The notes: generated from the letters alone by a model not told the origin. Shown: positions 1,840 to 60,861, numbered from the stretch's first letter. The stretch: 64,000 bases of DNA from Patescibacteria group bacterium (GCA_038057075.1 JBBUDV010000006.1:2216-66215), one strand, 5' to 3'. A program made the numbers and translations.

Positions 1840-3084
1840 ATGGCTGATAAACTCCAAAAAATAAAAGTAGAAGAAGAACTTAAGCGCGGAGCAGAGGTCT
1901 CAATTATTAGTCTTGTTGATTCATTGATTGAAAACGGCTATCATAGCCGCGCTTCGGATATTCATATAGATCCCGAAGAAAAACGGGTAAGGGTAAGATT
2001 AAGAATAGACGGCATTTTAAATGATGCGTTTATTCTACCTAAAGACATTCAATCCGAGGTTATAACGAGAATTAAGGTGCTTTCCGGACTTAGAACCGAT
2101 GAGCATCAAGCGGCTCAAGACGGCCGTTTTAGAACCGAAATTGAAGGCGGCGGGCCTATTGATCTTCGTGTCTCCATAGCTCCCACTTATTACGGCGAAA
2201 ATGCGGTAATGCGCCTTCTTATGGAAAAAGAAGAAAAATTTACTTTGGAAACATTGGGATACAACGAAAGAGACAGAGGAATAATAATGAAAGCCATTAA
2301 AAATCCTTACGGGATGATTCTGGCAACCGGCCCCACCGGTTCCGGAAAAACAACCACGCTTTACACGATTCTGAAAATTTTAAACACCAAAGAGGTCTCA
2401 ATAATTACGATTGAAGACCCCATAGAATATTCCCTTGAAGGCATTGACCAGATTCAGGCTAATACCAGAACCGGACTGACTTTTGCCACGGGTTTGCGTT
2501 CCATTTTGCGGCAAGACCCCAATATAATTATGGTCGGAGAAATTAGAGACGAAGAAACCGCGAGAATAGCCGTGAATGCGGCTTTGACCGGACATCTTTT
2601 GCTTTCAACTCTGCATACGAACGACGCCCCCACTACCCTGCCTCGTTTACTTGATATGCAGATTGAACCGTTTTTGATTGCTTCCACGGTTAATATCGCC
2701 ATCGGACAACGTTTAGTAAGAAAAATTTGCGAGAATTGCAAAGTTAACAAAGCCATTTCCACGGATGAGTTAAAAACATTATCCGAGTCCGTATCAACTG
2801 AAATTCTTTCTAAATATGAAAAAATCACGAAAAGCAAAAATTTTTCCAAAGGAAGCGGCTGTGAAAAATGTAATGACACCGGTTATCAGGGAAGAATCGG
2901 AATTTATGAAGTTTTGGAAGTTGACGATGATATAAGAAAGGCGGTTATCAGAAAAGCGGATGCCGGCGAAATCAGGGATATCGCCATAAAAAATGGAATG
3001 ACTACAATGATAGGAGACGGATTTAAAAAGGCCTCGGAAGGAATAACAACCATTGAGGAAATATTAAGAGTTATACATGAATAA
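1840..3084 (+). CDS. pilB: Type IV pilus / type II secretion assembly ATPase (PilB/GspE family), short form
   Basis: Walker A GPTGSGKTTTL, Asp/His boxes, and the C-terminal CxxC...CxxC zinc motif of GspE ATPases. Confidence 0.9.
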   Translation: MADKLQKIKVEEELKRGAEVSIISLVDSLIENGYHSRASDIHIDPEEKRVRVRLRIDGILNDAFILPKDIQSEVITRIKVLSGLRTDEHQAAQDGRFRTEIEGGGPIDLRVSIAPTYYGENAVMRLLMEKEEKFTLETLGYNERDRGIIMKAIKNPYGMILATGPTGSGKTTTLYTILKILNTKEVSIITIEDPIEYSLEGIDQIQANTRTGLTFATGLRSILRQDPNIIMVGEIRDEETARIAVNAALTGHLLLSTLHTNDAPTTLPRLLDMQIEPFLIASTVNIAIGQRLVRKICENCKVNKAISTDELKTLSESVSTEILSKYEKITKSKNFSKGSGCEKCNDTGYQGRIGIYEVLEVDDDIRKAVIRKADAGEIRDIAIKNGMTTMIGDGFKKASEGITTIEEILRVIHE

Positions 3085-4624: not shown

Positions 4625-4760
4625 TCCCTCACCCTTCAAATACCGAAAACCCGAACATTTTACTTAAAAAACAAAGATTTAAAAATAAATGTTGATTTTA
4701 ATTTTGAAACGCAGAACTTGTAAAAGGTTTTATAAAATGCCGTATTTGAAGGGTGAGGGA
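4625..4760. mobile_element. IR-D family element copy 1 (18-bp terminal inverted repeats around ~100 bp AT-rich core)
   Basis: tccctcacccttcaaata (4625-4642) and tatttgaagggtgaggga (4743-4760). The left arm starts right after the upstream pilin stop codon. The right arm encodes YLKGEG of the next gene's prepilin leader, and that gene's ATG (4737) lies inside the element. Confidence 0.55.
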
Positions 4761-6956: not shown

Positions 6957-7041
6957 TGTGCCCGGTGTGGATAACTTTAATTATTTCCCGGAAGTTTATG
7001 TTATAATTAAAAAAATTAAAAGGTCGAGGGAAACGAAAAAA

Positions 7042-7075
7042 GGTTTACCCCGTTAGAAATTTTTAAAAACGGGTT
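7042..7075. repeat. IR-C family element, compact hairpin copy, upstream of the pilin gene
   Basis: ggtttaccccgttagaaattttt aaaaacgggttaatcc. Shares the CCCCGTTAGAAAT core with 12000-12086 and 14429-14488. Confidence 0.5.
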
Positions 7076-7123
7076 AATCCTTGATTAAAATCTATCAGTT
7101 AAATCAGGAATTAAATAAAAATT

Positions 7124-7591
7124 ATGATTACTAAAATTTCTAAGCGGGGTTTTACATTAATTGAACTTTTGGTTGTTATCGGAATTATCGCGATTTTAGC
7201 CGCAGTTGTTATTGTCGCTTTAAACCCCGCAAGACAATTCGCGCAAGCCAGAAACACTCAAAGATGGAGTAATGTTAACACTGTTTTAAACGCAGTTGGA
7301 CAAAGAATGGCGGACAATAAAGGCGTTTTTGAAACCGCGTGCGCCGCAGGCGTCATTCCGACAGCTTCAACCACCATGGCAAACGGCGTTGGCAATTACG
7401 ACATAGCTCCTTGCATTATTCCGACTTATGTTTCAACGATGCCGTTTGACCCCAGAGCGACTGGCGCTCATTACACGAGCAACGCAGATTACAACGCCGG
7501 CTATAAAATACAAAGGGATGCGACAACAGGAAGAATAACAATCAGCGCTCCGGAAGCGGAACTTGAAGAACCTATCTCGGTAACCAGATAA
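7124..7591 (+). CDS. Type IV pilin (major pilin candidate)
   Basis: MITKISKRG|FTLIELLVVIGIIAILAA, followed by a strong terminator. Confidence 0.75.
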   Translation: MITKISKRGFTLIELLVVIGIIAILAAVVIVALNPARQFAQARNTQRWSNVNTVLNAVGQRMADNKGVFETACAAGVIPTASTTMANGVGNYDIAPCIIPTYVSTMPFDPRATGAHYTSNADYNAGYKIQRDATTGRITISAPEAELEEPISVTR

Positions 7592-10303: not shown

Positions 10304-10310
10304 AATTCAA

Positions 10311-10400
10311 TTACATTTGGCAGCGAGACCGCAAAAAAAACTTAGTTTTATTTGCGGCGAGCGAACCAAATGAAAAAAATGTTACGCTCCGTAACATTTA
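10311..10400. repeat. Repeat family A copy 1 (~90 bp, two-hairpin intergenic element)
   Basis: ttacatttggcagcgagaccgcaaa...tttgcggcgagcgaaccaaatgaaaaaaatgttacgctccgtaacattt. Lies 8 nt upstream of the DMT gene start. Confidence 0.8.
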
Positions 10401-10425
10401 TTATACCATTATCGCCATTACGCTA

Positions 10426-11686: not shown

Positions 11687-12235
11687 TCAATTGATTTTTA
11701 ATAGTTCAACTTCAAAAACAAGCGTGGCGCCGGGCGGTATCGCTCCTGGAACGCCTCTTTCGCCATATCCCAATTCGGACGGAATAGTCAATTTGCGTTT
11801 TTCCCCGACTTTCATGCCCAACAATCCCTGTTCCCATCCTTGGATTACTTGTCCCGCGCCGAGAACAAAAGAAAACGGCTGTCCCCTGTCAATGGAAGAA
11901 TCAAATTTTTCCCCGTCTGTTAATGTACCAATGTAATGGGCAGTAATCTTATCGCCATTTTTGGCGCCTTCACCCTCGCCTTGCTTTAAAATTTCTACAT
12001 TTACCCCGTTAGAAATAATTTGTTTTATATTATTACCTTCGAGATTATTATTGTTGTTTGTATTTGAATTTCTAACGGGGTTTACCATAAGTTTGTTTTG
12101 ATTATTTTCGACTTTTTCAGAGTTAAAATCAATTTTCTTGCTGAAATAATAACCGCCTACAAATACGGCTATTACCAGAATCGCGGTTAAAAATAAATTT
12201 AAAAAATTTTTATTATTCATATAATTTATTGCCAT
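11687..12235 (-). CDS. FKBP-type peptidyl-prolyl cis-trans isomerase, membrane-anchored
   Basis: C-terminal FKBP domain ([15 protein letters not shown]...[20 protein letters not shown]...[11 protein letters not shown]). The N-rich linker carries the IR-C element in frame. Confidence 0.85.
12000..12086. mobile_element. IR-C family element inserted in frame in the FKBP gene
   Basis: Arms tttaccccgttagaaat / atttctaacggggttta flank 52 bp of AT-rich DNA. The element is 87 bp (29 codons) and encodes the low-complexity linker [28 protein letters not shown]. Confidence 0.55.
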
Positions 12236-12543
12236 TCACTGAACCCGTGTTCTAAATTATATACGTCTTGAAATCCCATAGGCGCCATAATTTTTTCCGC
12301 GCAAGCGCGGCTGCGGCCGCCTTTTTCGCAATAAACCAGATATTTTTTATTCTTATCCAATTTGTCAATTTTGTTCTGAAAATCCGGAGAATACATGTCT
12401 AAATTAACCGCATTTTCAAGATGTCCGCTGTCAAATTCTTCTTTCGCGCGTACGTCTAAAATTATAAAATCGGCGTTATTTTTATTTCCCTCAATAAGTT
12501 TTTTTGCCGCTTCAGAAGAAATATTTTTAATTTGTTGTTCCAT
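12226..12543 (-). CDS. Rhodanese-domain sulfurtransferase
   Basis: 105 aa with active-site Cys in YCEKGGRS. Confidence 0.8.
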
Positions 12544-12570
12544 CTCTGGAAAATTATAAATGATTTTCTA

Positions 12571-12610
12571 AAAAATAAAAAGCCCCGCCAGTCCATGAAC
12601 TGGCGGGGCG
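12571..12610 (-). terminator. Rho-independent terminator
   Basis: Stem gccccgccagt/actggcggggc with an A-run on plus, giving a U-run on minus. Confidence 0.5.
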
Positions 12611-12694
12611 AATACTACATCCTTCTTTGCAATAGGTAATTGCTCTCAAAAAATATCGCGGACGCATCATAAGCAATACCTCCTTTCATCTTAA

Positions 12695-12877
12695 TTATTT
12701 TTTCGGTTGGCATTGCAGGCAAACTACAGTTGGACATTTTAATATATTTTCTTCGCTTAAAATACCGATATTAGGTTCCCAAACATCATTAATTTTAATC
12801 GCATTGCAACCCGCGCATTTTATGATATTTTCTGCAATATTATTTATTACTTCAGGTCCGCCTTTTATGGTCCGCAT
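12695..12877 (-). CDS. Small Cys-rich protein (putative zinc ribbon), unknown function
   Basis: MRTIKGG... with CAGC...C...CxxC. A GGAGAGGGAG Shine-Dalgarno precedes the chosen ATG. The ORF-track start is 18 nt further upstream. Confidence 0.4.
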   Translation of the reverse strand: MRTIKGGPEVINNIAENIIKCAGCNAIKINDVWEPNIGILSEENILKCPTVVCLQCQPKK

Positions 12878-12935
12878 AATTTTCTCCCTCTCCAAATTAT
12901 AAATTTGCTAACATAAGAATATCATATTCTAATGT

Positions 12936-13757
12936 TTATGCAATAATTTTGACAAATCTCCACTTTTTATACTGATCTTTGTAAAATATCCATTTTTTAT
13001 ATTTTAATTGCTTTAAAATTTTCCCGATTAATGGTTTTTGAAATGAGTCAAATTCCATCCATATTTGACAGGTTGGTTTAATATATTGAACCGTTTGTTT
13101 TAAGAATTTTTTAATTATTTTAAGTCCGTCTTTTCCCGAGAATAATGCCTTTTTTGGTTCGTATTTTAAAACCTCCTTCTGAACCCTGTTTTTCCGTTTT
13201 AGAGCGACATACGGCGGATTTGCCAAAATAAAATCGTATTTATCTTTCAATAAATTTAAAGAGTGAACGGCTGTATCAATTATATTTTTACCGCTCGGGT
13301 TAACCCGAGCGGTAAAAATATCTGCCCGTATCACGCGATAACGAGATTTGTTGATTCTATTTATTTTCAAATTTAATTTTATCTGCTTTATCAAATTAGA
13401 ATCAATTTCATAAAAATCTACTTTTGAATTTTTTACATTTTTCAGGACAGAAATTCCCACACAGCCGGAACCGGCGAAAACATCCGCTATCTTTAAAGAT
13501 AGCGGCTTAGCATTCACGGAATAATCCAAAATTTTCGCAATTACTTTTTCAACCCAAAATTCCGTTTCCGGACGTGGAATCAACGGCTTAAAAGAAAGGT
13601 CTATTTCACAGTTTAAAAACGGTTTCCATCCTACGATATAATCAACCGGCTCGCCTTTTTTCAACCGTTTTATGTCATTTTCAATTTCCGGTCGGAGTTT
13701 GCCGCCATATTTATCTTTCAAAATCCAACCGATTTCTTTATAAAAATTTTTGGACAT
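12936..13757 (-). CDS. prmC: Release factor glutamine N5-methyltransferase PrmC/HemK
   Basis: SAM motif DVFAGSGCVGISV and the NPPY catalytic motif FILANPPYV. Confidence 0.8.
   Translation of the reverse strand: MSKNFYKEIGWILKDKYGGKLRPEIENDIKRLKKGEPVDYIVGWKPFLNCEIDLSFKPLIPRPETEFWVEKVIAKILDYSVNAKPLSLKIADVFAGSGCVGISVLKNVKNSKVDFYEIDSNLIKQIKLNLKINRINKSRYRVIRADIFTARVNPSGKNIIDTAVHSLNLLKDKYDFILANPPYVALKRKNRVQKEVLKYEPKKALFSGKDGLKIIKKFLKQTVQYIKPTCQIWMEFDSFQKPLIGKILKQLKYKKWIFYKDQYKKWRFVKIIA
13283..13320. mobile_element. Palindrome-B (38-bp perfect palindrome) inside the prmC coding sequence
   Basis: tatttttaccgctcgggttaacccgagcggtaaaaata encodes IFTARVNPSGKNI between the DIF and NPPY motifs, where PrmC normally has a much shorter spacer. 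An identical copy lies at 17863-17900. Confidence 0.6.
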
Positions 13758-13846
13758 TTTACATATTATAAATGCCTTAATGATAATTATTCAACGGCAA
13801 AATAAAAAGCGCCCCAACAAATAGCGGAACGCAGAATTTAAATTAA

Positions 13847-14344
13847 CTAGATAATCACGACGCATTTTTCATTTTTTCTTTTGCTGGCTCCAAATTCGCC
13901 CAAATACGCCATTGGACCGGCAAAATGAGGATAAGAAAATTTTTTGGCGATTTCTCTTAATTCTTCAATGTCGCAGTTATAAACAAACAACCTTAAACGC
14001 CTTAACATTTTTTCCGCGACATATTCCTCTCCGAAAAATCTAATATGGTCCTTTCCCCAATGTTCGCAATAATCGACGTTGTTTTTGTCCAAAGTCTTTA
14101 TTTCAATATCTACTAATTTCCCGTCGATTACCAGCTTATGCCTACATATCCACTGGATTAGATTGCCGTCAGAACCGACATGTTCATAATCGGTAATTCC
14201 GTATTTTTCGGGATTTTCCATCAATGTCTCAAAAAAATTAATAGCAATGGCTAAAATTATTGATTCATCATGGAGCCACTGAACCGTCAAATTTTTAATC
14301 ATTTCTTTCAAATCGCTTTCTTTGAATAAAAATAATTTTTTCAT
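13847..14344 (-). CDS. Hypothetical protein
   Basis: 165 aa ORF with no recognisable motif. Confidence 0.3.
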   Translation of the reverse strand: MKKLFLFKESDLKEMIKNLTVQWLHDESIILAIAINFFETLMENPEKYGITDYEHVGSDGNLIQWICRHKLVIDGKLVDIEIKTLDKNNVDYCEHWGKDHIRFFGEEYVAEKMLRRLRLFVYNCDIEELREIAKKFSYPHFAGPMAYLGEFGASKRKNEKCVVII

Positions 14345-14428
14345 TCTCCTCTCCTTTATAACTGATTTTTTATTTTCAAAGAACCAAACTATTTTAAAAT
14401 ATTAATTTAAAAAATTATAGCTTGTCAA

Positions 14429-14488
14429 TCCCGTTAGAAATACATACAAAATTTAATAAATTTTTACTGCCCTGGATTTCTAACGGGG
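14429..14488. repeat. IR-C family element, intergenic copy
   Basis: tcccgttagaaat - 34 bp - atttctaacgggg. Confidence 0.55.
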
Positions 14489-14492
14489 TTAA

Positions 14493-17286: not shown

Positions 17287-17321
17287 TTCATCGCCTCCTT
17301 TTATCCGATTCTTACATTTGG

Positions 17322-17404
17322 CAGCGAGTCCACAAAGGGAACTTTAATTTCATTTGCGGCGAGCGAACCAAATGAAAAAATGTTACGCTCTGTGGCATTT
17401 TTTA
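17322..17404. repeat. Repeat family A copy 2
   Basis: ttacatttggcagcgagtccacaaagg...tttgcggcgagcgaaccaaatgaaaaaatgttacgctctgtggcatttttt. Confidence 0.8.
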
Positions 17405-17547
17405 TTGAATTTTAATTATTGGAACTAAAAATAGAATATCACTTAAATACTATTTTGTAAAGTGTTTTACTTTTTGCGCAAAAAGTTCGGCGCAAAAAAA
17501 GGCCCCGACAAAATGTCAGAGCCAAAGCGTTAAAACCGAAGTCTGGA

Positions 17548-17862: not shown

Positions 17863-17900
17863 TATTTTTACCGCTCGGGTTAACCCGAGCGGTAAAAATA
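17863..17900. repeat. Palindrome-B copy 2, intergenic, terminator-like
   Basis: Identical 38-bp palindrome tatttttaccgctcgggttaacccgagcggtaaaaata, 6 nt after the CAP gene stop. Confidence 0.7.
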
Positions 17901-17905: not shown

Positions 17906-18787
17906 TTACTGAAGACATTGATTCAATAAAAACACTTGATTGTTATAAGTTTCAATTATTGTCTTTGTTTGATTAATAAGAGTGTTATACCTGTTTACCA
18001 GCTCATTATATTCTTCTATTTTTTGATTTAAGGAAGGATCGCCTCTTTCCATACTTTCAATCTCGGCCTTTTTCGTTTCAAGAATTGCCGCTAATTGTTC
18101 TATCTCTTTTTTATTAGTATTAATCGCTGATTTTAAATTCTGTTCAATTGCCGGACAATCGGAAGTCGGCCGGCCGAATTCCTGAACCGCAATCCAGACT
18201 TCTTTTCCCTGATAAATTCCTTTCAACGCCGCTACTCCTATTTCTTTATATTTAGAATTTAAGATATTAGCGCGATGCCCCGAAGAATTCATCCAACCTT
18301 CTACCACTGCTTTGTCATTTTCAAAATTTCCCAAAATTAAATTCTCGCCAACTTCCAAATAATCATAGCCCGCTTGTTTTGCCAACTCCGCCGGACCAAC
18401 GCCGTCAACGGGTGAGATATGCTCAAAATATTGATTTTTAAACATATCCCGCGCTTTAGCCAAAGCCGCCTTATTTAAATTTTCATTCTCTTTAAGCGTT
18501 GGAAGTACGGCCATTGCTCTTTCAGTATTAGTCCAAATAATTATTCCTAACGAAGTTAAATTTAATTTATGAACTTCAAAAATTTCTTTAACTATCTTAA
18601 GCGGCGGAGCGGAAATATTTTCAGCGGCTGATTGCGGCGCGGTCAAAAATTCGTTGAATTTTTGATTGGGTTTTAAAGGTTCGGAAAGCGGTTTAGTAGC
18701 CGGCAACTGAAAATTTTTTAAATCGTTTTGAAAAACAAACAGCCCGATTAAAATAAATAAAGCGACAATTAATAACCTAAAAGACAT
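17906..18787 (-). CDS. CAP/SCP/YkwD-like domain protein with C-terminal coiled coil
   Basis: SSGHRANILNSKYKEIGVA matches the CAP signature. Carries an N-terminal TM. Confidence 0.7.
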   Translation of the reverse strand: MSFRLLIVALFILIGLFVFQNDLKNFQLPATKPLSEPLKPNQKFNEFLTAPQSAAENISAPPLKIVKEIFEVHKLNLTSLGIIIWTNTERAMAVLPTLKENENLNKAALAKARDMFKNQYFEHISPVDGVGPAELAKQAGYDYLEVGENLILGNFENDKAVVEGWMNSSGHRANILNSKYKEIGVAALKGIYQGKEVWIAVQEFGRPTSDCPAIEQNLKSAINTNKKEIEQLAAILETKKAEIESMERGDPSLNQKIEEYNELVNRYNTLINQTKTIIETYNNQVFLLNQCLQ

Positions 18788-22732: not shown

Positions 22733-23158
22733 CTATTTCAAATTAACTATATAGGTTTTGATAAATTTTTCTATTGCCAATACAGTTTCGGTTTTTAATT
22801 TTGGGTTTGATTCCGCCACCCATTTGGCAAAATTATAAAGTTCTTGATTATCAACTTCCAACCATTTTTTGTTTTTGTGTAAAAAATAAAAAAGTGTCAT
22901 CATGGCAATCCGTTTATTTCCATTTTTAAACGGATGGTTTTTAACCATTAAATAAAATAATACCGACACTTTCCCAATAAATCCTTTATATAACGGCTTG
23001 CCGCCGAAAGTTTGGAATGGCGCGATTAAACAACTTTCTAAAATATTAGGATAACGCGAACTAAAATCAGGAATTGGCTCATCCCATGCCATCATTTCTT
23101 TTGCCAACCAATAAGCGACATATTCAACTTGAATGATTGAAATTATTTTTATTTTCAT
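22733..23158 (-). CDS. Doc/Fic-family toxin, copy 1
   Basis: Doc-type motif HPFKNGNKR. Confidence 0.7.
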   Translation of the reverse strand: MKIKIISIIQVEYVAYWLAKEMMAWDEPIPDFSSRYPNILESCLIAPFQTFGGKPLYKGFIGKVSVLFYLMVKNHPFKNGNKRIAMMTLFYFLHKNKKWLEVDNQELYNFAKWVAESNPKLKTETVLAIEKFIKTYIVNLK

Positions 23159-26056: not shown

Positions 26057-26479
26057 TTAAGATTTTACTATGTATGTTTTGATAAATTTTTCTATTGCCA
26101 ATACAGTTTCGGTTTTTAATTTTGGGTTTGATTCCGCCACCCATTTGGCAAAATTATAAAGTTCTTGATTATCAACTTCCAACCATTTTTTGTTTTTGTG
26201 TAAAAAATAAAAAAGTGTCATCATGGCAATCCGTTTATTTCCATTTTTAAACGGATGGTTTTTAACCATTAAATAAAATAATACCGACACTTTCCCAATA
26301 AATCCTTTATATAACGGCTTGCCGCCGAAAGTTTGGAATGGCGCGATTAAACAACTTTCTAAAATATTAGGATAACGCGAACTAAAATCAGGAATTGGCT
26401 CATCCCATGCCATCATTTCTTTTGCCAACCAATAAGCGACATATTCAACTTGAATGATTGAAATTATTTTTATTTTCAT
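26057..26479 (-). CDS. Doc/Fic-family toxin, copy 2
   Basis: Identical over most of its length to copy 1; the C-terminus differs (KTYIVKS). Confidence 0.7.
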   Translation of the reverse strand: MKIKIISIIQVEYVAYWLAKEMMAWDEPIPDFSSRYPNILESCLIAPFQTFGGKPLYKGFIGKVSVLFYLMVKNHPFKNGNKRIAMMTLFYFLHKNKKWLEVDNQELYNFAKWVAESNPKLKTETVLAIEKFIKTYIVKS

Positions 26480-28212: not shown

Positions 28213-28335
28213 TAATTAAATTATAACACAAAAAGTTCAAGTCCAATTCCTCTGTCACTTTTGTAGCAAAATTCATCCAGCAATGATGTGATTTTAAAAG
28301 TTAAAAATCTTGGCTCCTCGGGTAGGTATCCTTCA

Positions 28336-28638
28336 CTAAAGTTTCGGAATACCATTTTCCCCTCTAGAAGAATCTTTCTTTAAAACTTCAGAATTTAATA
28401 ATCGTTTATAGGCAAAAGCTTTTCCTGAACCTGTTTTTAAATATCGCTCAAAATCCTTTGCTAATTTTTGATTCTCAAAAGCGCTATAAAATACTAAATT
28501 CCAAGGTCTATATGGCGAAGTAGATTTTACCAAACCTTTATTATGCTCCAAAAATCTTTTCCGCAAATCTTCAGTATATCCAAAATAAAAATTTTTGGAT
28601 TTTGAGCTCCATAAAATATATGTATAGTGCATAGCCAT
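28336..28638 (-). CDS. GIY-YIG nuclease-domain protein (UPF0213-like)
   Basis: YTYILWSSKSKNFYFGYTEDLRKRFLEHN. Confidence 0.7.
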   Translation of the reverse strand: MAMHYTYILWSSKSKNFYFGYTEDLRKRFLEHNKGLVKSTSPYRPWNLVFYSAFENQKLAKDFERYLKTGSGKAFAYKRLLNSEVLKKDSSRGENGIPKL

Positions 28639-28658
28639 TCTGAAGCTTTAGCGAAAGA

Positions 28659-28733
28659 TGGCTCCGCAGGTAGGATTCGAACCTACGACCAACCGCTTAA
28701 CAGGCGGCCGCTCTACCACTGAGCTACTGCGGA
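28659..28733 (-). tRNA. tRNA-Asn (GTT)
   Basis: Cloverleaf TCCGCAG/CTGCGGA, anticodon loop CTGTTAA, T-loop TTCGAAT, encoded CCA. Confidence 0.85.
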
Positions 28734-28816: not shown

Positions 28817-28873
28817 TTACATTTGACAGCGAGTCCGTAAATAAAAAAAATGTCACGTTTCGTGACATTTTTT
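28817..28873. repeat. Repeat family A copy 3 (internally deleted)
   Basis: ttacatttgacagcgagtccgtaaat...aaaaaatgtcacgtttcgtgacatttttt. Confidence 0.7.
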
Positions 28874-28880
28874 AAGATAA

Positions 28881-29177: not shown

Positions 29178-30527
29178 CTAACTCGCCAAGTCCGTATCTT
29201 TGCTTCTAACAAAGAAATTGTAAATGCCGTAACCCAAAGCCAACCCTAAAAGCAGGTCAAAAAACAAACTATTAACCAGCGAGCCGATAACGTCCAAAAG
29301 TGAAGCCGTGACACTCGCGCTTTCTTTGATAATCACGGCCAGATAAGAATCAACTGAACGCAAATTGCCGCTTGAATCATTATAATTCAGCGTTGAAGCA
29401 AACATCAGAGCGGAACCGCCTCTTGTCAGATTTTTAATTTTAATTTTAACGTTGATAGTCCCCTGTTCTTGCGGATTTATAGTCCCCAGATTAAAACTCA
29501 AATTATTGCCGATTGAAACGGATTTCAAATTGGAGCTTTGGTATTGAACTTCCCCCGGCAAAACGATTTTAAGCGACGCGTTTTTAACAGAACTTTTGCC
29601 GATATTTTTATAATTCAAAATATAAGTGATTTCCTGTCCTGCGGACGGATTTTGATTGTCAACTGACGGGTCCAAAAAAATAATTTCATTTGTTATTTTT
29701 GGAGCCGATTTTTTAACGGTTGAACCGATGTTAAAAATTGACGGCTGAGTCGGCAAAGTCGGTTGAACAGAAATTGATGCCGCAGGCGGAATTGACGGAA
29801 CTGTTCCTGACGGAATCAGTTGATTTGTAAAAGTTAAAATAGAACCGTATGACATGCCTTGAGAACTTTGAGCAATAATACGGTAATAATAAGTTACGTT
29901 TGGAGAAAGATTTTGCAAATAAGCGTAAACCTTCTGATTGTCTCCCCAGCTCCCGACTCCCTGATAGCCGACAAGATATTCAAGCTGATAACTCGTTCCG
30001 TATTCAAACCACGCGGTTGTGTAATTGTAATTCGGATTTACAGTGCCGCTTAACGTAACCGAATTATTGGTTATTAAAGAAACCGGGTTTGTAAAAACCA
30101 ACGGCGCCATACCCGAAGCCGAACTTTGCGTTTTAAACGACATCGCGCCTCCTTTAACTATCCTATTATCGCAATATGAATTTTGAGCCAATATCCGATA
30201 GTAATAAGTCGTGCTCGGCTGAAGATCTCTTAAATTAGCCGAAACAATTGAAATATTGCTGCGATGGGATTCGTAGCCGATTATTGAAGTGTTGGTAAAT
30301 TGGTCACTCGCGCTGTATTCAAACCAAGACCAATAATCCACAGGCGAATTGACGGAGCCGCTGAAAGTTACCGAATTTTTGGTGATATTCGTCGCGCCGC
30401 CGGTGTAAACCGTGGGAAATAAAGAAGGGTTGCAAACACTCTGGGCGTTTGCAAAATTAGGCGCTAAAAACGCCGACAATATTACGCCAAAATAAAAAAT
30501 CCAAATTGGTTGGATTATTTTTTTCAT
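29178..30527 (-). CDS. Cell-surface protein with two FN3-like domains, DUF11-like domain and C-terminal TM anchor
   Basis: Signal peptide; TTYYYRILAQ and VTYYYRIIAQ FN3 signatures. Confidence 0.55.
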   Translation of the reverse strand: MKKIIQPIWIFYFGVILSAFLAPNFANAQSVCNPSLFPTVYTGGATNITKNSVTFSGSVNSPVDYWSWFEYSASDQFTNTSIIGYESHRSNISIVSANLRDLQPSTTYYYRILAQNSYCDNRIVKGGAMSFKTQSSASGMAPLVFTNPVSLITNNSVTLSGTVNPNYNYTTAWFEYGTSYQLEYLVGYQGVGSWGDNQKVYAYLQNLSPNVTYYYRIIAQSSQGMSYGSILTFTNQLIPSGTVPSIPPAASISVQPTLPTQPSIFNIGSTVKKSAPKITNEIIFLDPSVDNQNPSAGQEITYILNYKNIGKSSVKNASLKIVLPGEVQYQSSNLKSVSIGNNLSFNLGTINPQEQGTINVKIKIKNLTRGGSALMFASTLNYNDSSGNLRSVDSYLAVIIKESASVTASLLDVIGSLVNSLFFDLLLGLALGYGIYNFFVRSKDTDLAS

Positions 30528-30609
30528 GACAAAATGATACGTTATTTACGTTATTTTGTCAAGATAATGTACTGGATGAATATATTAGTAACGCTATATA
30601 TGCACTAAA

Positions 30610-30876
30610 CCCCCGGCTTTTGTACAAAAACACGCGTCGTTTTTCCCAGCGTGAAAAGCGCGCTCGACCTCGTTCTCGCTCGTCCGAGACAATAGATTCT
30701 GAAGAATGTCTCGGAGGCGCAAAAAGATTGGTTCCGCTATTTGGCGGATTTTTGCGCCGAGAGGCAAACTCCCGGCTCTCCGCTGGAGAGAGCCGAGGGG
30801 TGATTCTAAAGAACCTATTGTCTCGGACACCTTGCCCGCTCGAACTCCGTACGGTTTCCTTTACAAAAGCCGGAGG
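30610..30876 (+). ncRNA. Candidate structured ncRNA of unknown class (strand tentative)
   Basis: Locally GC-rich. Two nested perfect long-range helices: 30613-30624 with 30862-30873 (12 bp) and 30682-30695 with 30815-30828 (14 bp), plus several internal hairpins. The overlapping ORFs on both strands look non-coding. Confidence 0.4.
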
Positions 30877-30890
30877 TTAGCAGATAAAAT

Positions 30891-31529
30891 TTATTCTTTT
30901 ATCAGAGGCACGAAGCTGAACCCAAAATAATCTTTTCTAACGTATTTATTTTTGGCAATTTTATCAATAACCACAATGCTGTTTTCAATTGGAGCGACTA
31001 TTCTGCCGTTGATTTTAAGCTGTCTTTTCCAGGCAACGGGTATCTCGTTGGATGCCGCGGCAACAATAATCCTGTCAAAAGGCGCTTCCTTTTTATAACC
31101 TTTGGAGCCGTCGCCTAAAATAATCTCAACGTTTCCTTTTTTTACAAAATCGCATTTTGAAATATTCTTCTCCGCCATATCTTTCAATTCTGCTATTCTC
31201 TCAATCGCAAAAACTTTCCCTGAAGATTCTTTACCGACTATATGCGCGAGCAAGGCGGTTTGCCAGCCGCTTCCCGCGCCGATTTCCAAAATTTTTTCGC
31301 CGCTTCTGGGACGAAGAAGTTCAAGCATAAAAGCAACCGTAAGCGGCTGTGAAATCGTCTGCTCAAAGCCAATCGAAAGCGGCTCATTAATATAAGCCCT
31401 TGTTTTATTTTCTTGCAAAACGAAATCTGCCCTGTCAACGGCCTTAAAGGCCTCAATTATCTCCGAAGTTTTAAGATAACCGTCGTTGATTAACAAATTT
31501 ATAAGATTTTCGTAGTCAGGATTATTCAT
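30891..31529 (-). CDS. pcm: Protein-L-isoaspartate O-methyltransferase
   Basis: SAM motif ILEIGAGSGWQTALLA. Confidence 0.85.
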   Translation of the reverse strand: MNNPDYENLINLLINDGYLKTSEIIEAFKAVDRADFVLQENKTRAYINEPLSIGFEQTISQPLTVAFMLELLRPRSGEKILEIGAGSGWQTALLAHIVGKESSGKVFAIERIAELKDMAEKNISKCDFVKKGNVEIILGDGSKGYKKEAPFDRIIVAAASNEIPVAWKRQLKINGRIVAPIENSIVVIDKIAKNKYVRKDYFGFSFVPLIKE

Positions 31530-31993
31530 TAATTAATTTTACCGAACTTTTTTTCTCCCCAATTTAATCGGGACAAAAAGAAAAATACGGCGCTGCCGAC
31601 AAATGAATTATATAAAACTTCTTGAATAAAAACTCGGGAAATAATCGTGTAAGGAAACAATAAAAGATAAAAGATAAAAGTATAAACAAATATCAAAACC
31701 AAGCAGTTTATAAGCGGCTGCCACGGCAAATATCTGGCAATAATAATCGTTAAAACGCCTATCCCGAAAAAAAGCAAAATGTCTTTATCGGGATGCGGGG
31801 AAAACTTTAAAAATAATGACGCGACTGATAAAAGGAAAACGCTTTCCCAAATCTCCTGAATAAAAAACAAAGCCGCCGCAAAAACCGCCAAAACAAAATT
31901 CGGCTTAACTCCAAAAAACGAAATATTAAGCGATTGAATGAGCGAGAAAAAAATAATGACGGAAATAAGAATTAAAAAATGCCTGATTTTCAT
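31529..31993 (-). CDS. Hypothetical 4-5 TM membrane protein
   Basis: 154 aa. Confidence 0.35.
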   Translation of the reverse strand: MKIRHFLILISVIIFFSLIQSLNISFFGVKPNFVLAVFAAALFFIQEIWESVFLLSVASLFLKFSPHPDKDILLFFGIGVLTIIIARYLPWQPLINCLVLIFVYTFIFYLLLFPYTIISRVFIQEVLYNSFVGSAVFFFLSRLNWGEKKFGKIN

Positions 31994-32023
31994 ATGTTTT
32001 TAAGATTACTTGCCGCTATTTAT

Positions 32024-32113
32024 TACATTTGGCAGCGAGTCCACAAAGAAAACTTTGTTTTATTTGTGGCGAGAGAACCAAATGAAAAAATGTTACGTTT
32101 CGTGACATTTTTT
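32024..32113. repeat. Repeat family A copy 4
   Basis: ttacatttggcagcgagtccacaaagaaaactttgttttatttgtggcgagagaaccaaatgaaaaaatgttacgtttcgtgacatttttt, between the dnaJ stop and the next gene's start. Confidence 0.8.
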
Positions 32114-33254
32114 ATTCTTCTTCTTTTTCCAAATCCTCTAAAAGTTTTTTAGCCGCGCCGCTGATTTTTTTAGGAGTTTTAACTTTAAGTTTAAGCAATA
32201 AATCGCCTCGGCCACTCCGGTTGAAATGAGGCATTCCTTCGCCGGAAATTCTGATAAACCGGTTAATCTCAAAATCCGCCGGTATTTTCACTTTTATTTT
32301 TCCGCCCGAAATAACGGGAATCTCAAATTCTCTGACGCCGGCAAAATAAAGTAAAAGCGCGATTAAACTGATTTCCTTTTCAATTATCAAATCGTCACTT
32401 TGTCTGGAAAAAATTTTATGAAACTTAATCCTGATAATAATAAATAAATCCCCTTCTTCCATTCCTCTTTCTCCGGCTTCTCCGCCGCCTTTGATTTTTA
32501 TTATCTGATTGTCGGACACGCCGGGCAGAATTTTGATTGTCGTTTCCTTTTCTCCTTTCACGGCTCCCCTGCCTTTGCAAGAATCGCAAATTTTATTGGG
32601 CGTCTGACCCGAGCCAAAACAGCCGGAACACATTTTAACCTGCGTAAAACTGCCGAAAAAAGTGTTCCGATTTTCTTTTATTTCGCCTCTGCCCCCGCAA
32701 ACCGAACACGTGGAAAATCCGGATTTCGGTTCATGGCCCAAGCCGCTGCATTTAACGCATCTGACATCAACTTTATATTTGATTTTTTCCTCCGTGCCGG
32801 AAAACGCCTCTTCCAAACTTATTTCTTGAATCAATTGGATATCGGAACCGTGCTTATAAGTCCGCCTTTGCTCCTTTACGCCCAAACCTTCAAAAAACGC
32901 GTCAAAAATATCACCGATATCCGCGGCTCCTCCTCCGCCAAAATCAAAATTAAAACCAGAAGACCCGCCTTGAGCGCCGCCGAAGGGCCCGCCTTGACCG
33001 AAATCCCAGCCGCCGAATGGACTGCCTTGAGCGCCGCCGGAAGACTGTTCCTCAAAGACCCTGCCGAATTGGTCGTACTGATTCCGTTTTTGAGGATTGG
33101 ATAAAATCTGATACGCTTCGCTTAATTCTTTAAATTTTTTCTCGTCGCCGCCCGGTTTGTCAGGATGATATTTATGCGCCAGCTTACGATACGCTTTTTT
33201 TATGTCGTCTTGCGTGGCGTTTTTTTCAATACCTAAAATTTTGTAATAATTCAT
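32112..33254 (-). CDS. dnaJ: Chaperone DnaJ
   Basis: J domain with HPD; G/F-rich region; four CxxCxGxG zinc-finger repeats. Confidence 0.9.
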
Positions 33255-33358
33255 GTTTCAAATTAAAAAGTAAAATATAAAAATTAAAAAGTATTTTGGG
33301 ATTTTCTTATTTTTAACTTTTAATTTTCGTTTTTCATTTTTAGTTTTCTGTTTTTCAT

Positions 33359-34351
33359 TTATACAATTATAGTTTCCTTACTCCGTTGTTCCAAAGAAAT
33401 TCTGGCAAAGCCGATTGCCAACAAAATCTCATAAATCACAAAAGTTAAAATAGATATCACCGATCTTAACGGCCAACTTATCGCTTCAATGGTCAAAAAA
33501 ATCAAAAGCCCAATTATTGCGAAAACAATTTGTTTGCCTCTCTCAGATAAGTTTAAAAATTTTTCTCTGGCAATCTGATAAAGTGAATCTGGAATATTCA
33601 TTTTTGGATTTATTTTAATTCCCAAAAAAGAAGACACTCTGTCGTAAAATTCGGAAGCGCTTTTACCGATTATTTGCTGTTTGGCGGTTTTAGACAAATT
33701 TTCCGCGCCGGGAAGCCGGTTTAAACTTTGTTCTGAAGTTTTTAACGCTATTTCTTCAAGAGTAGAAGATATAGTAAACCCGGGCAAAAATTTATTAATT
33801 ATAAAATCGCCGGACGACATAACTTCACGAAACAAAAAAGGCGAAACCGGAAATCTGTCTTGGTCGGCTACGGCCGAATAAAACGGCATCAGACCGCCGA
33901 ATAAAAGCGCGAAGGCCGCAACTGCTTTGGGCAAAACCGCCCGGCTGGTTTCCCAAAAATTTATTTTCATATTATTTTCAAGAACCTTTCTGCCGCTGTA
34001 GTTGCCCCAATATAAAACCGCAAAAATAATAACGGAAAAGGACAAAATAACCAGCGACTCGGTGATAAAAGTAATAACCATCGCCAAACTTTCAAGAACC
34101 AAAATGAAAGCCGAAGCGCTGTTTTGCCTTGTAAAAAACGTCTGGAGAAGAAAAATTATTGAAAATACCAAACCCAAAACGCTTGCCCAAAAAAGAGCGT
34201 TCCAATCGGTTGTTCTAAAAAAGTCCTTTAAAAACCAGCCGAACGCGAAAGCCGCCGCGATGCCCAAAATCCAAAGAACAATTATTTTAATTGATATAGA
34301 CCCAGGATGTTCAAGAGAAGTTTTTTTGTCAAGAAGCTGGATTTCCGTCAT
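33359..34351 (-). CDS. Hypothetical polytopic membrane protein
   Basis: 330 aa; overlaps the dnaK stop by 23 nt. Confidence 0.35.
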
Positions 34352-38544: not shown

Positions 38545-38561
38545 AAAATGGTACTTGGTAA

Positions 38562-45771: not shown

Positions 45772-45899
45772 CCCTCACCCTTCAAATATTTATTTTATAA
45801 ATTTATTAAAATTTATAAAATGGAATAATTGAAGTTTTAATTTATTATCATTTTTTACCCCCTGCCTTTTAAATTTTTTTATCTTTGAAGGGTGAGGGA
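45771..45899. mobile_element. IR-D family element copy 2, filling the pheS-pheT intergenic gap
   Basis: tccctcacccttcaaata (45771-45788) and tctttgaagggtgaggga (45882-45899), 17 of 18 complementary. The arms abut the pheT start codon and the pheS stop codon. Confidence 0.55.
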
Positions 45900-49194: not shown

Positions 49195-49199
49195 TTTTT
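49109..49199. repeat. Repeat family A copy 5
   Basis: ttacatttggcagcgagaccgcaaagaaaactttgttttatttgcggcgagggaactaaatgaaaaaatgttacgcgttgtgacatttttt; overlaps the annotated htpX start. Confidence 0.8.
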
Positions 49200-49220
49200 A
49201 TACGAAATGAAATTCATTAT

Positions 49221-49908: not shown

Positions 49909-49996
49909 AATAATTTAACTTACAACCCACAACTTACAACTTACAACAAATTTATTTTTAGTTATTATTTATTAGTTGTTTGTTGTTAGTTATTAG

Positions 49997-50437
49997 TTAT
50001 TTTAATATTTCTTCCAATTTTTTTTCCAATAATTCGTTGTTAATAAAAGCGTCGCTGGACTCCTTTCTTTCTTCTCTAATTTTAACTTTCGGCAAAGCCG
50101 CCTGCTCATTGAAAGACACGGGCTTCTCGGATTGTTCCATTTCCTGCTGTTTTAAAGCGGTATCCGGCAAAACAACCGCTAAAAACCTCAATATCTTTTG
50201 GTTAAATTTGAGTTTTTCCGTTAATGGCTTTATTGAAGCGGCATCAAGCGCGAATTGGACGTAACCGAAAAAAGCTCCTGTTTCTTTTTTAATCGCATAA
50301 GCCAGCCGAATTTTTTTCGGCTTTCCTTCTTTTAAAATATCGGCTTTATGGGCTTTTAGCGCTTTAATTACTTCTTCGGCATCCCCCTCTGAAACCGCCA
50401 AATATCCTATTTCGTAATTTTTTACCAAGTTTTCCAT
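49997..50437 (-). CDS. rpsF: 30S ribosomal protein S6 (extended C-terminus)
   Basis: YEIGYLAV start, and position in the rpsF-ssb-rpsR operon. Confidence 0.7.
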   Translation of the reverse strand: MENLVKNYEIGYLAVSEGDAEEVIKALKAHKADILKEGKPKKIRLAYAIKKETGAFFGYVQFALDAASIKPLTEKLKFNQKILRFLAVVLPDTALKQQEMEQSEKPVSFNEQAALPKVKIREERKESSDAFINNELLEKKLEEILK

Positions 50438-58415: not shown

Positions 58416-58513
58416 TTTTTTATTCAATTGGAAATTGTCTCCCTGCGGGAGATGTCCCTTCGGGACAAAAATTGAAAAATTCATTGAAAATTAAAAATTT
58501 TAAATTAAAAATT

Positions 58514-59578: not shown

Positions 59579-59604
59579 GAATTAAGAATAATGAATAATG
59601 AAGA

Positions 59605-59712: not shown

Positions 59713-60861
59713 TTATCCTATATTAAGATTTCCATTGGCAACTAATTTATATTTCTTCTTTCTCAAATGATTCACGTAAGCCGCAACGGCAATCATAGCG
59801 GCATTGTCTGTCGTAAATTTTTTTGACGGAGCAAAAAAATTAACTTTTAACTTTTCACTTTTAACTTTTAACTTAAAATAATTCCTCAAAGAATTATTTG
59901 AGGCTACTCCGCCGGAAATCATAATTGATTTTGCTTTATATTGTTCCGCGGCTCGCAATGTCTTTTTAATCAAAACATCAAAAGCCGCTCTCTGAAAACT
60001 GGCAGCGATATCAGCTCGCAACCGATCCGAAACTACAAATTTATCCGAATGCCCCAAATTTTCATTTAGAGTATTATGATATATTCGTAATTTAGAATCA
60101 CGTATATAATACAGAACCGATGTTTTTAATCCGGAAAAACTGAAATCAAAATTTTTCTGGTCCAGCATTGGGCGCGGAAATTTTATCGCGTCGGGATTGC
60201 CAAGCTTAGCAAGTTTTTCAATTTCCGGCCCTCCGGGATACGGCAAATTCAGAAGCCGCGCGACTTTATCAAATGCTTCGCCGACAGCGTCATCACGCGT
60301 TTCCCCGATTTTTTTTATTTTAGTCAGCGAATCCATTTTAACTAAAATCGTATGACCGCCGGAAATAATTAAGGCAATAGCAGGAAAATAATTGGTAATT
60401 TTATTTTTTTGATTAAGGAAAAAGGAATATAGGTGTCCGTCAAGGTGACTAACGCCTTGTAATTTAACTTTTAACTTTTCATTTTTAACTTTTAACTTTT
60501 TGCAAAGTTCCTTTGCAAAGCCGATTCCTGTCCAAAGAGCTGGCTCTAAACCAGGTCCAACGGTAACGGCGATTACGTCTGGAATTATGAATTTTGAATT
60601 ATGAATTATGGTTTTTTTATTCTTAATTTTTAATTCATGATTCATGATTCTTTTAAGAAGAATTGGTAAATTCTTTAGATGCTCTCGTTTGGCCAAATTA
60701 GGAACCACGCCGCCAAAAGGCGCATGAATCTTAATCTGCGACGCCACAAAATTCTTTAAAATTTTGAATTGTGGATTTCTCAAACCGCCTTTTGCTTCAA
60801 CTAACGCTATTGCCGTTTCGTCGCAACTCGTTTCAATAGCCAAAATTTTCATATTCTTCAT
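59713..60861 (-). CDS. tsaD: tRNA N6-adenosine threonylcarbamoyltransferase TsaD, with in-frame low-complexity insertions
   Basis: Kae1/TsaD motifs (ILAIETSCDETA, His-His metal site). Two extra LKVKxEKLKV segments. Confidence 0.85.
   Translation of the reverse strand: MKNMKILAIETSCDETAIALVEAKGGLRNPQFKILKNFVASQIKIHAPFGGVVPNLAKREHLKNLPILLKRIMNHELKIKNKKTIIHNSKFIIPDVIAVTVGPGLEPALWTGIGFAKELCKKLKVKNEKLKVKLQGVSHLDGHLYSFFLNQKNKITNYFPAIALIISGGHTILVKMDSLTKIKKIGETRDDAVGEAFDKVARLLNLPYPGGPEIEKLAKLGNPDAIKFPRPMLDQKNFDFSFSGLKTSVLYYIRDSKLRIYHNTLNENLGHSDKFVVSDRLRADIAASFQRAAFDVLIKKTLRAAEQYKAKSIMISGGVASNNSLRNYFKLKVKSEKLKVNFFAPSKKFTTDNAAMIAVAAYVNHLRKKKYKLVANGNLNIG
59842..59874. repeat. 33-bp repeat inside tsaD (copy 1)
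   Basis: aacttttaacttttcacttttaacttttaactt. Confidence 0.7.
60466..60498. repeat. 33-bp repeat inside tsaD (copy 2)
   Basis: aacttttaacttttcatttttaacttttaactt, 32 of 33 identical to copy 1. Confidence 0.7.

Follow-up and report, generated by a model that had tools for sequence, protein, structure and literature searches.

How can short inverted-repeat DNA come to lie within the housekeeping genes of a small bacterial genome and leave their reading frames intact? This question is raised by a 64,000-nt stretch of DNA from a Patescibacteria group bacterium (GCA_038057075.1, JBBUDV010000006.1:2216-66215), hereafter referred to as the window, in which the genes FKBP, prmC, and tsaD carry repeats that are termed here IR-C, Pal-B, and the tsaD repeats, respectively; all positions are counted from the first nucleotide of the window. 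A sequence-only reading of this DNA had proposed that three unrelated families were inserted in frame in essential genes, in the manner of Rickettsia palindromic elements (RPEs). To our knowledge, reports of selfish DNA that lies in frame within housekeeping genes have come mainly from Rickettsia so far. Genomes within the CPR (candidate phyla radiation) are tiny and densely packed, so that almost every insertion should hurt. In this work, IR-C was identified as a mobile element of the MITE (miniature inverted-repeat transposable element) type that is inserted in frame in the FKBP gene, and the only element bearing an open reading frame (ORF) that was found with IR-C ends encodes a GIY-YIG nuclease. 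We consider it probable that the three repeats differ in nature, IR-C being a non-autonomous element with terminal inverted repeats (TIRs), Pal-B a low-copy hairpin, and the tsaD repeats arrays of heptanucleotides.

All repeat sequences quoted in the sequence-only reading were found, either where they had been placed or at most 1-2 nt away, and none of them is expected by chance. The three ORFs are open, as had been stated, and the three repeats are indeed three different things. FKBP, however, is not known as an essential gene. The evidence for RPE-like behavior is strong for IR-C and weak for Pal-B, whereas it speaks against such behavior for the 33-bp repeats of tsaD. The same reading caught the IR-C insertion but missed its start-codon habit, its link to a GIY-YIG nuclease, and a palindromic insert in tsaD at about 60580-60652.

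The contig that contains the window, 88,985 bp in length, stems from a Hainich groundwater metagenome (ENA ERZ1292625). The host proteins are labeled Patescibacteria group bacterium at NCBI, and the closest named relatives of the PrmC protein are Staskawiczbacteria. Several loci were used for comparison: L006 and L007 come from another well, and their flanking DNA is 96-98% identical to the window; L011 is a strain of about 97% identity that covers tsaD; and L008/L009 and L010 are syntenic loci of related species, with PrmC identities of 66-67%. The only Rfam matches in the window are tRNAs.

An inverted-repeat element in the FKBP gene

In the FKBP protein, a linker connects a hydrophobic N-terminal anchor to the FKBP_C domain, which spans residues 90-179 (Pfam E=2.9e-39), and its alignments with PDB entries start at about residue 72-77. 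The arms of IR-C, CCCCGTTAGAAAT and ATTTCTAACGGGG, are located at 12004-12016 and 12068-12080 and fold as a stem of 13-14 bp. As had been noted, they are bordered by TTTA on both sides. The site is empty in L008, where it reads ATGGTTAAAATT, and filled in the window, where ATGGTAAA is followed by the 77-bp element and TAAATGTA. At the protein level, the empty linker reads ...KPM-VKIEILKEG in L008 and ...KKM-VTIETTQQG in L010, with the hyphen marking the insertion point, and the filled linker of the window reads ...KLM V(NPVRN...IISNGV)NVEILKQG, with TAAA at both edges of the insert. An alignment of orthologs, which the sequence-only reading had suggested, shows that this segment is lacking in the two related species represented by L008/L009 and L010. 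Its length, which had been given as 87 bp or 29 codons, is 81 bp or 27 codons, made up of the 77-bp element and one 4-bp duplication. Strain L006 possesses the same insertion with perfect arms and a spacer of 48 bp, which has undergone an in-frame 3-nt deletion as well as substitutions.

Two frames of each arm can be read without interruption (NPVRN/PLEI in one arm and ISNG/FLTG in the other), and the third frame carries a stop codon (TAG/TAA). IR-C is tolerated in FKBP because its arms are open in two frames, its spacer is free of stop codons, and the linker site is tolerant. The copy inserted at a TAAA in the linker that joins the membrane anchor to the catalytic domain and thereby added the 81 bp. 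A search of the window with the arms returned 9 matches at no more than 2 mismatches, as compared to an expectation of 2.75, and each of the six best belongs to a pair; the 64 kb hold three IR-C copies, of 77, 60, and 102 bp, with unrelated spacers.

The IR-C family in metagenome contigs

A scan of metagenomes for two perfect 12-mers at a spacing of 30-60 nt returned at least 120 contigs (709 kb), and 129 unique elements were counted in those 120 contigs among the matches listed. The 4-nt flanks are identical in 89 of these 129 elements (69%), exactly one base beyond the 12-mer used for the search and hence outside the 13-nt arms; at every other register or length tested, flank identity was found in at most 13 of the 129. 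The outermost pair of the arms is C..G in 90 elements and T..A in 25, and the terminal pair is complementary in 122/129. The 13-bp arms read (C/T)CCCGTTAGAAAT and its complement. Element size ranges from 53 to 125 bp and spacer length from 23 to 94 nt. The spacers are mostly unrelated, although some spacer subfamilies recur between contigs or twice in the same contig, as in L025, where two copies share a 94-nt interior. The GC content of the host loci is between 29 and 57%, and the named host proteins belong to Paceibacterota, Patescibacteria, and Kaiserbacteria. No match to IR-C was found in viral contigs or plasmids, and Pal-B and the repeat family E were likewise without a match in viral contigs.

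Ten of the 129 elements lie in frame within long ORFs. In UvrB, the insert corresponds to 25 residues (447-471, PVRNSPPSGPLGVRKRTGTISNGVE) that have no counterpart in the Bacillus UvrB structure, and in the PrmC of another organism, 23 extra residues (118-140), also absent from the solved homolog, are located precisely between the N-terminal domain and methyltransferase motif I. Among the 93 open-frame elements, 51 add a length divisible by 3, as compared to 3 of the 35 without an open frame. The wider search for copies that had been recommended has uncovered a widespread family with target-site duplications and an in-frame bias, and the empty sites in orthologs, the exact duplications, and the in-frame copies in UvrB and PrmC bear out the proposal that IR-C is a selfish palindromic in-frame insert.

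Many of the elements are found at the start of genes. In 46/129 (36%), the last base of the arm and the next two bases form the ATG, GTG, or TTG that opens an ORF no shorter than 60 codons, and in a further 11 the start codon is inside the element. The proteins encoded downstream of the junction elements have normal N-termini, such as those of MurG (MKIVFTGGGTGGH), GAPDH (MKVAINGFGRIG), TIM (MKPLIVANWK), and PheT (MKISYNWL). Most of the duplicated sequences are TGAA/TTCA or TAAA/TTTA, and 27 of the 31 TGAA/TTCA duplications belong to the start-junction class. When start junctions are counted by strand, 39 of 47 instances still have the old start codon 6 nt upstream of the left arm, from which it follows that the original site was A-TGAA-A and that the product of insertion is ATGAA(C/T)-element-(G/A)TGAA. 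At such a landing with a TGNN duplication, the last base of the arm (G or A) and the duplicated TG rebuild a GTG or ATG for the host. This pattern suggests that start codons are targeted, rather than that harmless insertions survive there.

Translational coupling was considered as a general rule for the short start-codon elements and rejected, as 24 of 39 upstream ORFs that begin at the old ATG stop inside the spacer. Many of the spacers of start-codon elements (for example, L122, L106, L044, L071, and window 7061-7075) contain a degenerate copy of the right-arm end (TAACGGGG) soon after the left arm. This internal copy may stem from an older insertion that is now nested, or it may be a subterminal repeat or provide an alternative partner for pairing.

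A GIY-YIG nuclease gene between IR-C arms

In a Wolfebacteria genome (L012), the arms were found 279 bp apart, with a TTGA duplication and an 85-aa GIY-YIG ORF as the sole content. This ORF starts 5 nt past the left arm, and its stop codon TAA is located within the right arm. A protein search with the ORF identified 616 homologs, of which the best 120 share 73-87% identity and, with few exceptions, have a length of 85, 86, or 93 aa; among the sources that carry names are Nealson-, Wolfe-, Wildermuth-, and Jorgensenbacteria. Among these 120 proteins, 36 begin with M(N/S/D)PVR(N/S), which corresponds to ATG plus the translated left arm, and 101 end in F, matching the ...TTC TAA of the right arm, whereas a few homologs read through the right arm as ...SNG... 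The internal Met is kept in only 4 of the 36 arm-started nucleases, so that the remaining ones depend on the upstream ATG.

Both arms are present at all seven distinct nuclease loci (L012, L134, L144, L154, L155/L157, L159, and L161), which represent seven different insertion sites, and in each of them the nuclease ORF fills the element interior of about 280 bp. Perfect 4-bp duplications were found at five of the seven (TTGA, TGAA, TTGA, TGGA, and TGAA). At three loci the element occupies a host start codon, namely, that of nusA (L159), plsC (L161), and an ORF in L144. There, the nuclease ORF starts at the host ATG and stops with TAA, and the host gene resumes at a GTG 4 nt further on, so the arrangement of translational coupling holds for the nuclease-bearing form.

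The dN/dS values of the nuclease ORF are between 0.04 and 0.16 at dS values of 0.6-3, which are near saturation, and the arms are conserved nonetheless. The arm-flanked nuclease is under strong purifying selection. It possesses the Pfam GIY-YIG domain, and the nearest matches of known structure are BH0048 and EF2693, two stand-alone UPF0213 proteins; the NCBIfam model for group I intron endonucleases scored 26 bits against a cut-off of 56. On one contig, a stretch of 20 kb holds three GIY-YIG copies between arms, of which two are truncated, and another contig contains the nuclease gene and a short IR-C element within 14 kb. None of the arm pairs that lie 300-4000 bp apart in 133 loci, 120 of which (709 kb) came from the metagenome scan, resembles an insertion sequence, as judged without a comparison of the enclosed ORFs with transposase families.

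The literature searched contained nothing that links GIY-YIG proteins with MITEs, TIR elements, or REPIN-like systems, no report of MITEs in CPR bacteria, and the arm sequence in no relevant context. The pairing of IR-C with a GIY-YIG nuclease, which lies beyond what the sequence-only reading had claimed, is not described there.

Mobilization of IR-C and alternative explanations

From the sequence arrangements at these loci we infer that the GIY-YIG nuclease mobilizes the IR-C family. The nuclease would recognize the arms and mobilize its own element of about 280 bp as well as the short derivatives. In the nuclease-bearing form, the ORF often runs from the host ATG through the left arm and ends at the right-arm TAA, 4 nt before the rebuilt start. 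Tentatively, IR-C and its parent of about 280 bp may represent an undescribed class of prokaryotic transposable elements, with a bare 85-aa nuclease of the UPF0213 type as the sole protein in place of a DDE, HUH, serine, or tyrosine enzyme, recognition of 13-bp TIRs, 4-bp staggered cuts, and a preference for TGNN at start codons. An element of this class would use the ribosome-binding site and ATG of the host and return translation at the rebuilt GTG or ATG, and its gene-less derivatives would steadily supply extra peptide segments and new N-termini to the proteins of Patescibacteria. If this proposal is true, the large and functionally unassigned UPF0213 family gains a role, and if the link to the nuclease is functional, a nuclease class is added to the known transposase repertoire.

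A number of observations weigh against this interpretation. The enrichment at start codons may reflect survival instead of targeting, and the family counts come from a biased sample, because the scan took perfect 12-mers with 30-60 nt spacers and only the matches listed were counted. An exact duplication is lacking in 40 of the 129 elements, and only three host proteins can be named taxonomically. Each exact nuclease protein occurs in a single genomic context, which fits a vertically kept gene no less than an active transposon, and the 85-aa nuclease consists of the catalytic domain only, with no separate DNA-binding domain. The short elements are not simple deletion derivatives of the nuclease element, as their spacers have no sequence in common with the nuclease gene. 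Finally, the 64-kb window contains no arm-flanked GIY-YIG gene. The GIY-YIG gene at 28336-28638 of the window was considered as the partner of IR-C and rejected, as it has no arms and is only a distant homolog.

This 100-aa gene, on the minus strand, is located directly 3' of a tRNA-Asn gene, and beyond it the 3' end of the tRNA recurs in degenerate form. The region 28310-28733 looks like a tiny insertion at the end of the tRNA-Asn gene that lacks an integrase.

The nuclease has a serious rival in a conventional transposase that acts in trans. According to this explanation, which we regard as rather unlikely, IR-C elements are ordinary MITEs that are moved by an unsampled DDE-type transposase, and the GIY-YIG gene is captured cargo or a domesticated neighbor. 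A 4-bp duplication together with short perfect inverted repeats is a classical DDE signature among insertion-sequence families (PMC10969869), and the absence of an evident DNA-binding module from the nuclease and the single context of each exact nuclease sequence also agree with it. However, the 133 loci contain no insertion-sequence-like arm pair at 300-4000 bp; the nuclease ORF fills the interior in seven of seven cases, with its stop in the right arm and its start often in or before the left arm; and the arms are conserved although the synonymous sites of the ORF are saturated. Cargo is not expected to be so tightly coupled to the ends of an element.

It is very unlikely that the arms are a host regulatory hairpin at gene starts that was spread by selection for regulation: 57/129 elements overlap or abut a start codon, two pilin-like genes of the window have leader peptides encoded inside inverted-repeat elements, the degenerate right-arm copy inside many spacers could permit alternative pairing, and the arms fold as a stem, but the exact 4-bp duplication in a fixed register in 69% of copies is a transposition scar, copies are also found inside unrelated coding regions and in ordinary intergenic DNA, relatives have no element at the orthologous sites, and the spacers are unrelated in sequence. 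An invertible promoter switch was rejected, as it would need more than the 34-75 bp of the spacers and as the duplications at the flanks indicate transposition. A DNA-uptake sequence was rejected as well, since the arms are in every case closely spaced inverted pairs that have duplications. The arms were also compared with integron attC sites, and their GTTAGAA/TTCTAAC cores are in what we take to be the wrong order relative to attC.

Under the preferred reading of IR-C as a mobile element, RPE-like behavior is now seen in the CPR. IR-C avoids harm in two ways, namely, by arms that are open in two frames and by an insertion at start codons that rebuilds the start. For the annotation of CPR metagenome-assembled genomes, this means that arm-encoded peptides (MNPVRN..., ...ISNGV...) and shifted starts distort gene calls.

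Comparison with known mobile elements

RPEs measure about 150 bp, form ten sequence families, and are restricted to Rickettsia (PMC10969869). IR-C resembles them as a short palindromic selfish repeat that lies in frame in unrelated housekeeping ORFs and encodes a conserved, tolerated peptide (PMC10969869), since it was found in FKBP, UvrB, the PrmC of another organism, and further long ORFs. The two differ in that IR-C elements are 53-125 bp long with only the 13-bp arms conserved, and in that IR-C has a 4-bp duplication, a start-codon habit, and an associated nuclease gene; this comparison is one of features and not of sequence.

Another likeness is that to MITEs such as Correia, BOX/RUP, and Nezha, which are small, have TIRs and a target duplication, lack a transposase, are adjacent to genes, and give rise to in-frame fusions (PMC10969869). 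IR-C agrees with MITEs in size, TIRs, target duplication, and empty sites, whereas the scan for arm pairs found no parent insertion sequence with a transposase. Known MITEs derive from DDE insertion sequences and share internal sequence, whereas IR-C copies share the arms only and the ORF-bearing form encodes nothing but a GIY-YIG nuclease.

REPIN-RAYT systems are also reported to combine many short non-autonomous palindromic repeats with one repeat-flanked gene in a single context, and this gene is under purifying selection and is apparently kept in place within a population. RAYTs are HUH/Y1 tyrosine transposases that act on REP hairpins and produce no target duplication. The partner of IR-C, in contrast, is a GIY-YIG nuclease, and IR-C has true TIRs and 4-bp duplications, which places it outside the REPIN-RAYT systems. 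Free-standing homing endonucleases such as I-TevI and Seg share with the IR-C nuclease the GIY-YIG domain and the nature of small selfish genes that lie in or next to host genes and spare their function. However, they have a long DNA-binding region, act by recombination at one cognate site, and show neither inverted repeats nor duplications, whereas the IR-C nuclease is a bare 85-aa UPF0213 domain associated with inverted repeats, duplications, and many target sites, and it thus falls outside this group as well.

Table 1. Repeat elements of the window and the genes that carry them
Feature	Coordinates	Strand	Remarks and basis
IR-C copy over the 5' end of the type IV pilin gene	7048..7149	+	Arms; Pfam N_methyl at pilin residues 7-29
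FKBP-type peptidyl-prolyl isomerase gene, 182 aa, N-terminal membrane anchor	11687..12235	-	ORF; Pfam FKBP_C
Left target-site duplication copy, TTTA (TAAA on the gene strand)	12000..12003	.	Comparison of empty and filled sites
IR-C element, 77 bp, 51-bp AT-rich spacer	12004..12080	.	13-bp perfect terminal inverted repeats
Right target-site duplication copy, TTTA	12081..12084	.	Comparison of the flank with the empty site
prmC/hemK, release-factor glutamine methyltransferase, 273 aa	12936..13757	-	PDB HemK matches; homologs named PrmC/HemK
Pal-B, 40-bp perfect palindrome	13282..13321	.	Encodes PrmC residues 147-159 (IFTARVNPSGKNI)
Intergenic IR-C copy, 34-bp spacer, arms TCCCGTTAGAAAT / ATTTCTAACGGGG	14429..14488	.	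Arm match
Second Pal-B copy, 38-bp perfect palindrome, intergenic	17863..17900	.	5 nt past the stop of a CAP-domain gene (17906-18787, -)
tsaD, 382 aa	59713..60861	-	PDB TsaD E=1e-71; Pfam TsaD
Second heptanucleotide array, encodes KLKVKSEKLKV	59842..59874	-	Tandem Repeats Finder, period 7
Heptanucleotide array (AAAAGTT type, ~5 units), encodes KLKVKNEKLKV	60466..60498	-	Tandem Repeats Finder, period 7
Imperfect palindrome of inverted (ATGAATT)n heptamer arrays, encodes NHELKIKNKKTIIHNSKFII	~60580..60652	-	Alignment; Tandem Repeats Finder

Other inverted repeats of the window

The IR-C copy at the pilin gene (Table 1) has its left arm at 7048-7060 and its right arm, with a 1-nt insertion, at 7136-7149, and it is flanked by TTTA and TTTT. 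The start codon of the pilin (7124) and its leader, MITKISKRG-FTLIEL, are encoded within this copy. The sequence GAGGG-N-ACG AAA AAA GGT TT at 7033 is likely to be the decayed original start of an MKKGFTLIEL pilin, and the one-base insertion in the right arm would preserve the frame of the present leader.

The intergenic copy marks the 5' edge of a segment of 676 bp (13815-14490) that is missing in L006 and is bounded by TTTTTATTT direct repeats. In addition to the IR-C copy, this segment contains a terminator and a 165-aa ORF (13847-14344) without a Pfam match.

The arms of a second family of inverted repeats, TCCCTCACCCTTCAAATA, are separated by about 95 nt, and the family was found at 4625-4760 and 45766-45904 of the window and at 5251-5381 of L006; the L006 copy is missing from the window at about 15060. 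One copy encodes the pseudopilin leader MPYLKGEGG. In the other, the last A of the arm plus TG forms the start of pheT, and the opposite arm adjoins the stop of pheS. The termini of this family, (T/C)CCC...GGG(A/G), are similar to those of IR-C.

Pal-B in prmC

The peptide encoded by Pal-B is located in the loop between the PrmC strand ...VIRADIF and the strand DFILANPPY. The spacing between ...DIF and KYDFILANPPY is about 7 residues in most PrmC orthologs, as compared to 26 in the window, and the AlphaFold model predicts residues 152-167 with a predicted local distance difference test (pLDDT) score below 50, between confident strands at 140-144 and 174-179. The sequence-only reading was therefore right that a palindrome is present and lengthens the spacer between DIF and NPPY, although it took the palindrome to be 38 bp long instead of 40. 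Its description of the second copy as intergenic and 38 bp long is correct. The two copies, which lie 4.5 kb apart, agree in 42 of 43 nt; no such pair is expected by chance.

As RNA, Pal-B folds into a perfect hairpin of 17-18 bp, with a 4-nt loop formed by the rest of the palindrome and no U-tail, at -28 to -29.5 kcal/mol (-29.5 with z = -7 for the copy in prmC). The intergenic copy had been taken for a terminator; however, a T-run precedes the stem and AAAAA follows it on both strands, so Pal-B is not a canonical intrinsic terminator.

Among the comparison loci, Pal-B was found only in the same-species strain L006, at both positions of the window. The extended PrmC loop varies in sequence and length among the closest relatives, and the corresponding DNA of L008 and L010 is unrelated and non-palindromic. 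The 20-nt core of Pal-B was sought in 185,579 species-representative genomes and was detected in one other relevant genome, that of the Wolfebacteria L012, where an identical 26-nt hairpin lies behind groEL, preceded by an A-run and followed by a T-run, and represents a canonical terminator. In view of this single relevant match, Pal-B was rejected as a high-copy family. The idea of an RPE-like insert gains from the restriction of Pal-B to the population of one species and from the hypervariable loop that it occupies, and it loses from the findings that the window has two copies only and that neither a target duplication nor an empty site in a close relative was found.

These data suggest that Pal-B is a low-copy hairpin, secondarily placed in a tolerant and probably disordered surface loop of PrmC, and a weakly supported candidate for mobility. 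Most likely, it would have reached prmC when a hairpin such as those used downstream of genes was copied ectopically. Pal-B resembles the pneumococcal SPRITE repeats and intrinsic terminators as a GC-rich perfect hairpin with AT-rich flanks, of which one copy lies directly after a gene (SPRITE: PMC10969869); it differs from them in the reversed order of the runs in the window and in having only two copies, one of them coding.

The prmC region (window 12894-13814) is a mosaic when compared to L006, being 79% identical in a background of 96-98%, and nucleotides 331-480 of the gene, which include Pal-B, are nearly identical. Relative to L010, the prmC gene of L008 has a GC-rich insert of about 30 nt in the same PrmC loop (approximately 3000-3060, encoding SLPTRQSLSVGG), which points to a different repeat type that colonizes the same permissive site.

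The tsaD repeats

Both 33-bp repeats of tsaD lie where they had been located, and no further copy was found in the 64 kb. They had been classed with the palindromic elements; they are, however, direct tandem arrays of period 7 and not inverted repeats. Tandem Repeats Finder reported 5.0 and 5.4 copies with 87-92% matches. Each repeat had been said to add a segment to the protein. This holds for the array at 60466, which adds 7 aa with respect to Thermotoga TsaD after the helix that follows GPG, but not for the array at 59842, which corresponds to a segment of normal length with no net gain and is confidently predicted by AlphaFold as the end of a helix and a strand. The two arrays sit in structurally equivalent helix-to-strand connections. 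Throughout the family, TsaD orthologs of Parcubacteria have Lys-rich, hairpin-like peptides of the K-x-K-N-x-K-L-K-x kind at both sites, which tend to be alike within a protein.

In L011, both sites carry different arrays, of the CAACTAA type, and the rest of the gene is 91-100% identical to the window. A third array of L011 tsaD, (AATTACC)x4, is expanded by three units, or 21 nt, in frame; since the unit is 7 nt long, the frame is preserved only if units are gained or lost in threes. The window contains 12 period-7 arrays, as compared to 0.2 per shuffle (about 60-fold). We conclude that the tsaD arrays are tandem simple-sequence repeats, a class that pervades this genome and turns over rapidly between strains. 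They are similar to coding microsatellites as tandem arrays of a short unit that differ between close strains, as illustrated by the additional 21 nt in L011; they differ from them in that they are replaced wholesale between strains, jointly at two sites of one essential gene. This concerted change of both loops tells against the reading of the tsaD repeats as simple heptanucleotide arrays.

A diversity-generating retroelement was considered for the tsaD loops and rejected, as the differences are not limited to adenines; no reverse transcriptase was noticed, although none was specifically sought. Further period-7 arrays are located at 33260-33360, 38549-38578, 49917-50001, 58483-58513, 59572-59602, and 31660-31686. 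Those in intergenic DNA are often inverted pairs, and array lengths in general differ between the window and L011.

The insert at about 60580-60652 adds 9 aa to TsaD, and residues 80-89 have a pLDDT below 50 in the AlphaFold model. The peptide, NNELRI...HNSKFII, is missing in many orthologs and occurs at three different TsaD positions across orthologs. This insert fits the RPE-like idea better than the 33-bp repeats do.

The question remains whether all three repeats, and not IR-C alone, are mobile palindromic in-frame elements, as the RPE-like interpretation would have it. The two nearly identical Pal-B copies, one coding and one intergenic, the identical 26-nt hairpin in a Wolfebacteria genome, the lineage specificity of the Pal-B segment, and the three TsaD positions of the NNELRI...HNSKFII insert agree with such a unified view. 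It is nevertheless improbable, given that the Pal-B core was detected in 1 relevant genome of 185,579 and has no viral match, duplication, or empty site, and that the 33-bp tsaD repeats are direct, have similar peptides family-wide, include one that adds no residues, and lack any other copy in the window. Under the preferred reading, in which the three repeats are of different kinds, heptamer arrays and palindromic inserts account for many odd low-complexity insertions in CPR proteins.

Other repeats and structured regions of the window

A 96-nt repeat is present in four copies of 67-91% identity, at 10308-10403, 17310-17405, 32020-32115, and 49106-49201. Each copy lies just past the stop of a minus-strand gene and, on that strand, consists of a terminator hairpin followed by a long hairpin of about 65 nt, with no Rfam match. 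The terminator part also occurs at 28845-28874. The intergenic region 30590-30900 is GC-rich and highly structured, with nested inverted repeats in an otherwise AT-rich genome, and looks like an RNA gene; Rfam gave no match over 30500-32200, even at E<=1. Finally, a 300-nt duplicate of 99% identity (22743-23042 and 26064-26363) corresponds to two copies of a gene encoding a Fic-domain protein, each of which is paired with an HTH_17 gene.

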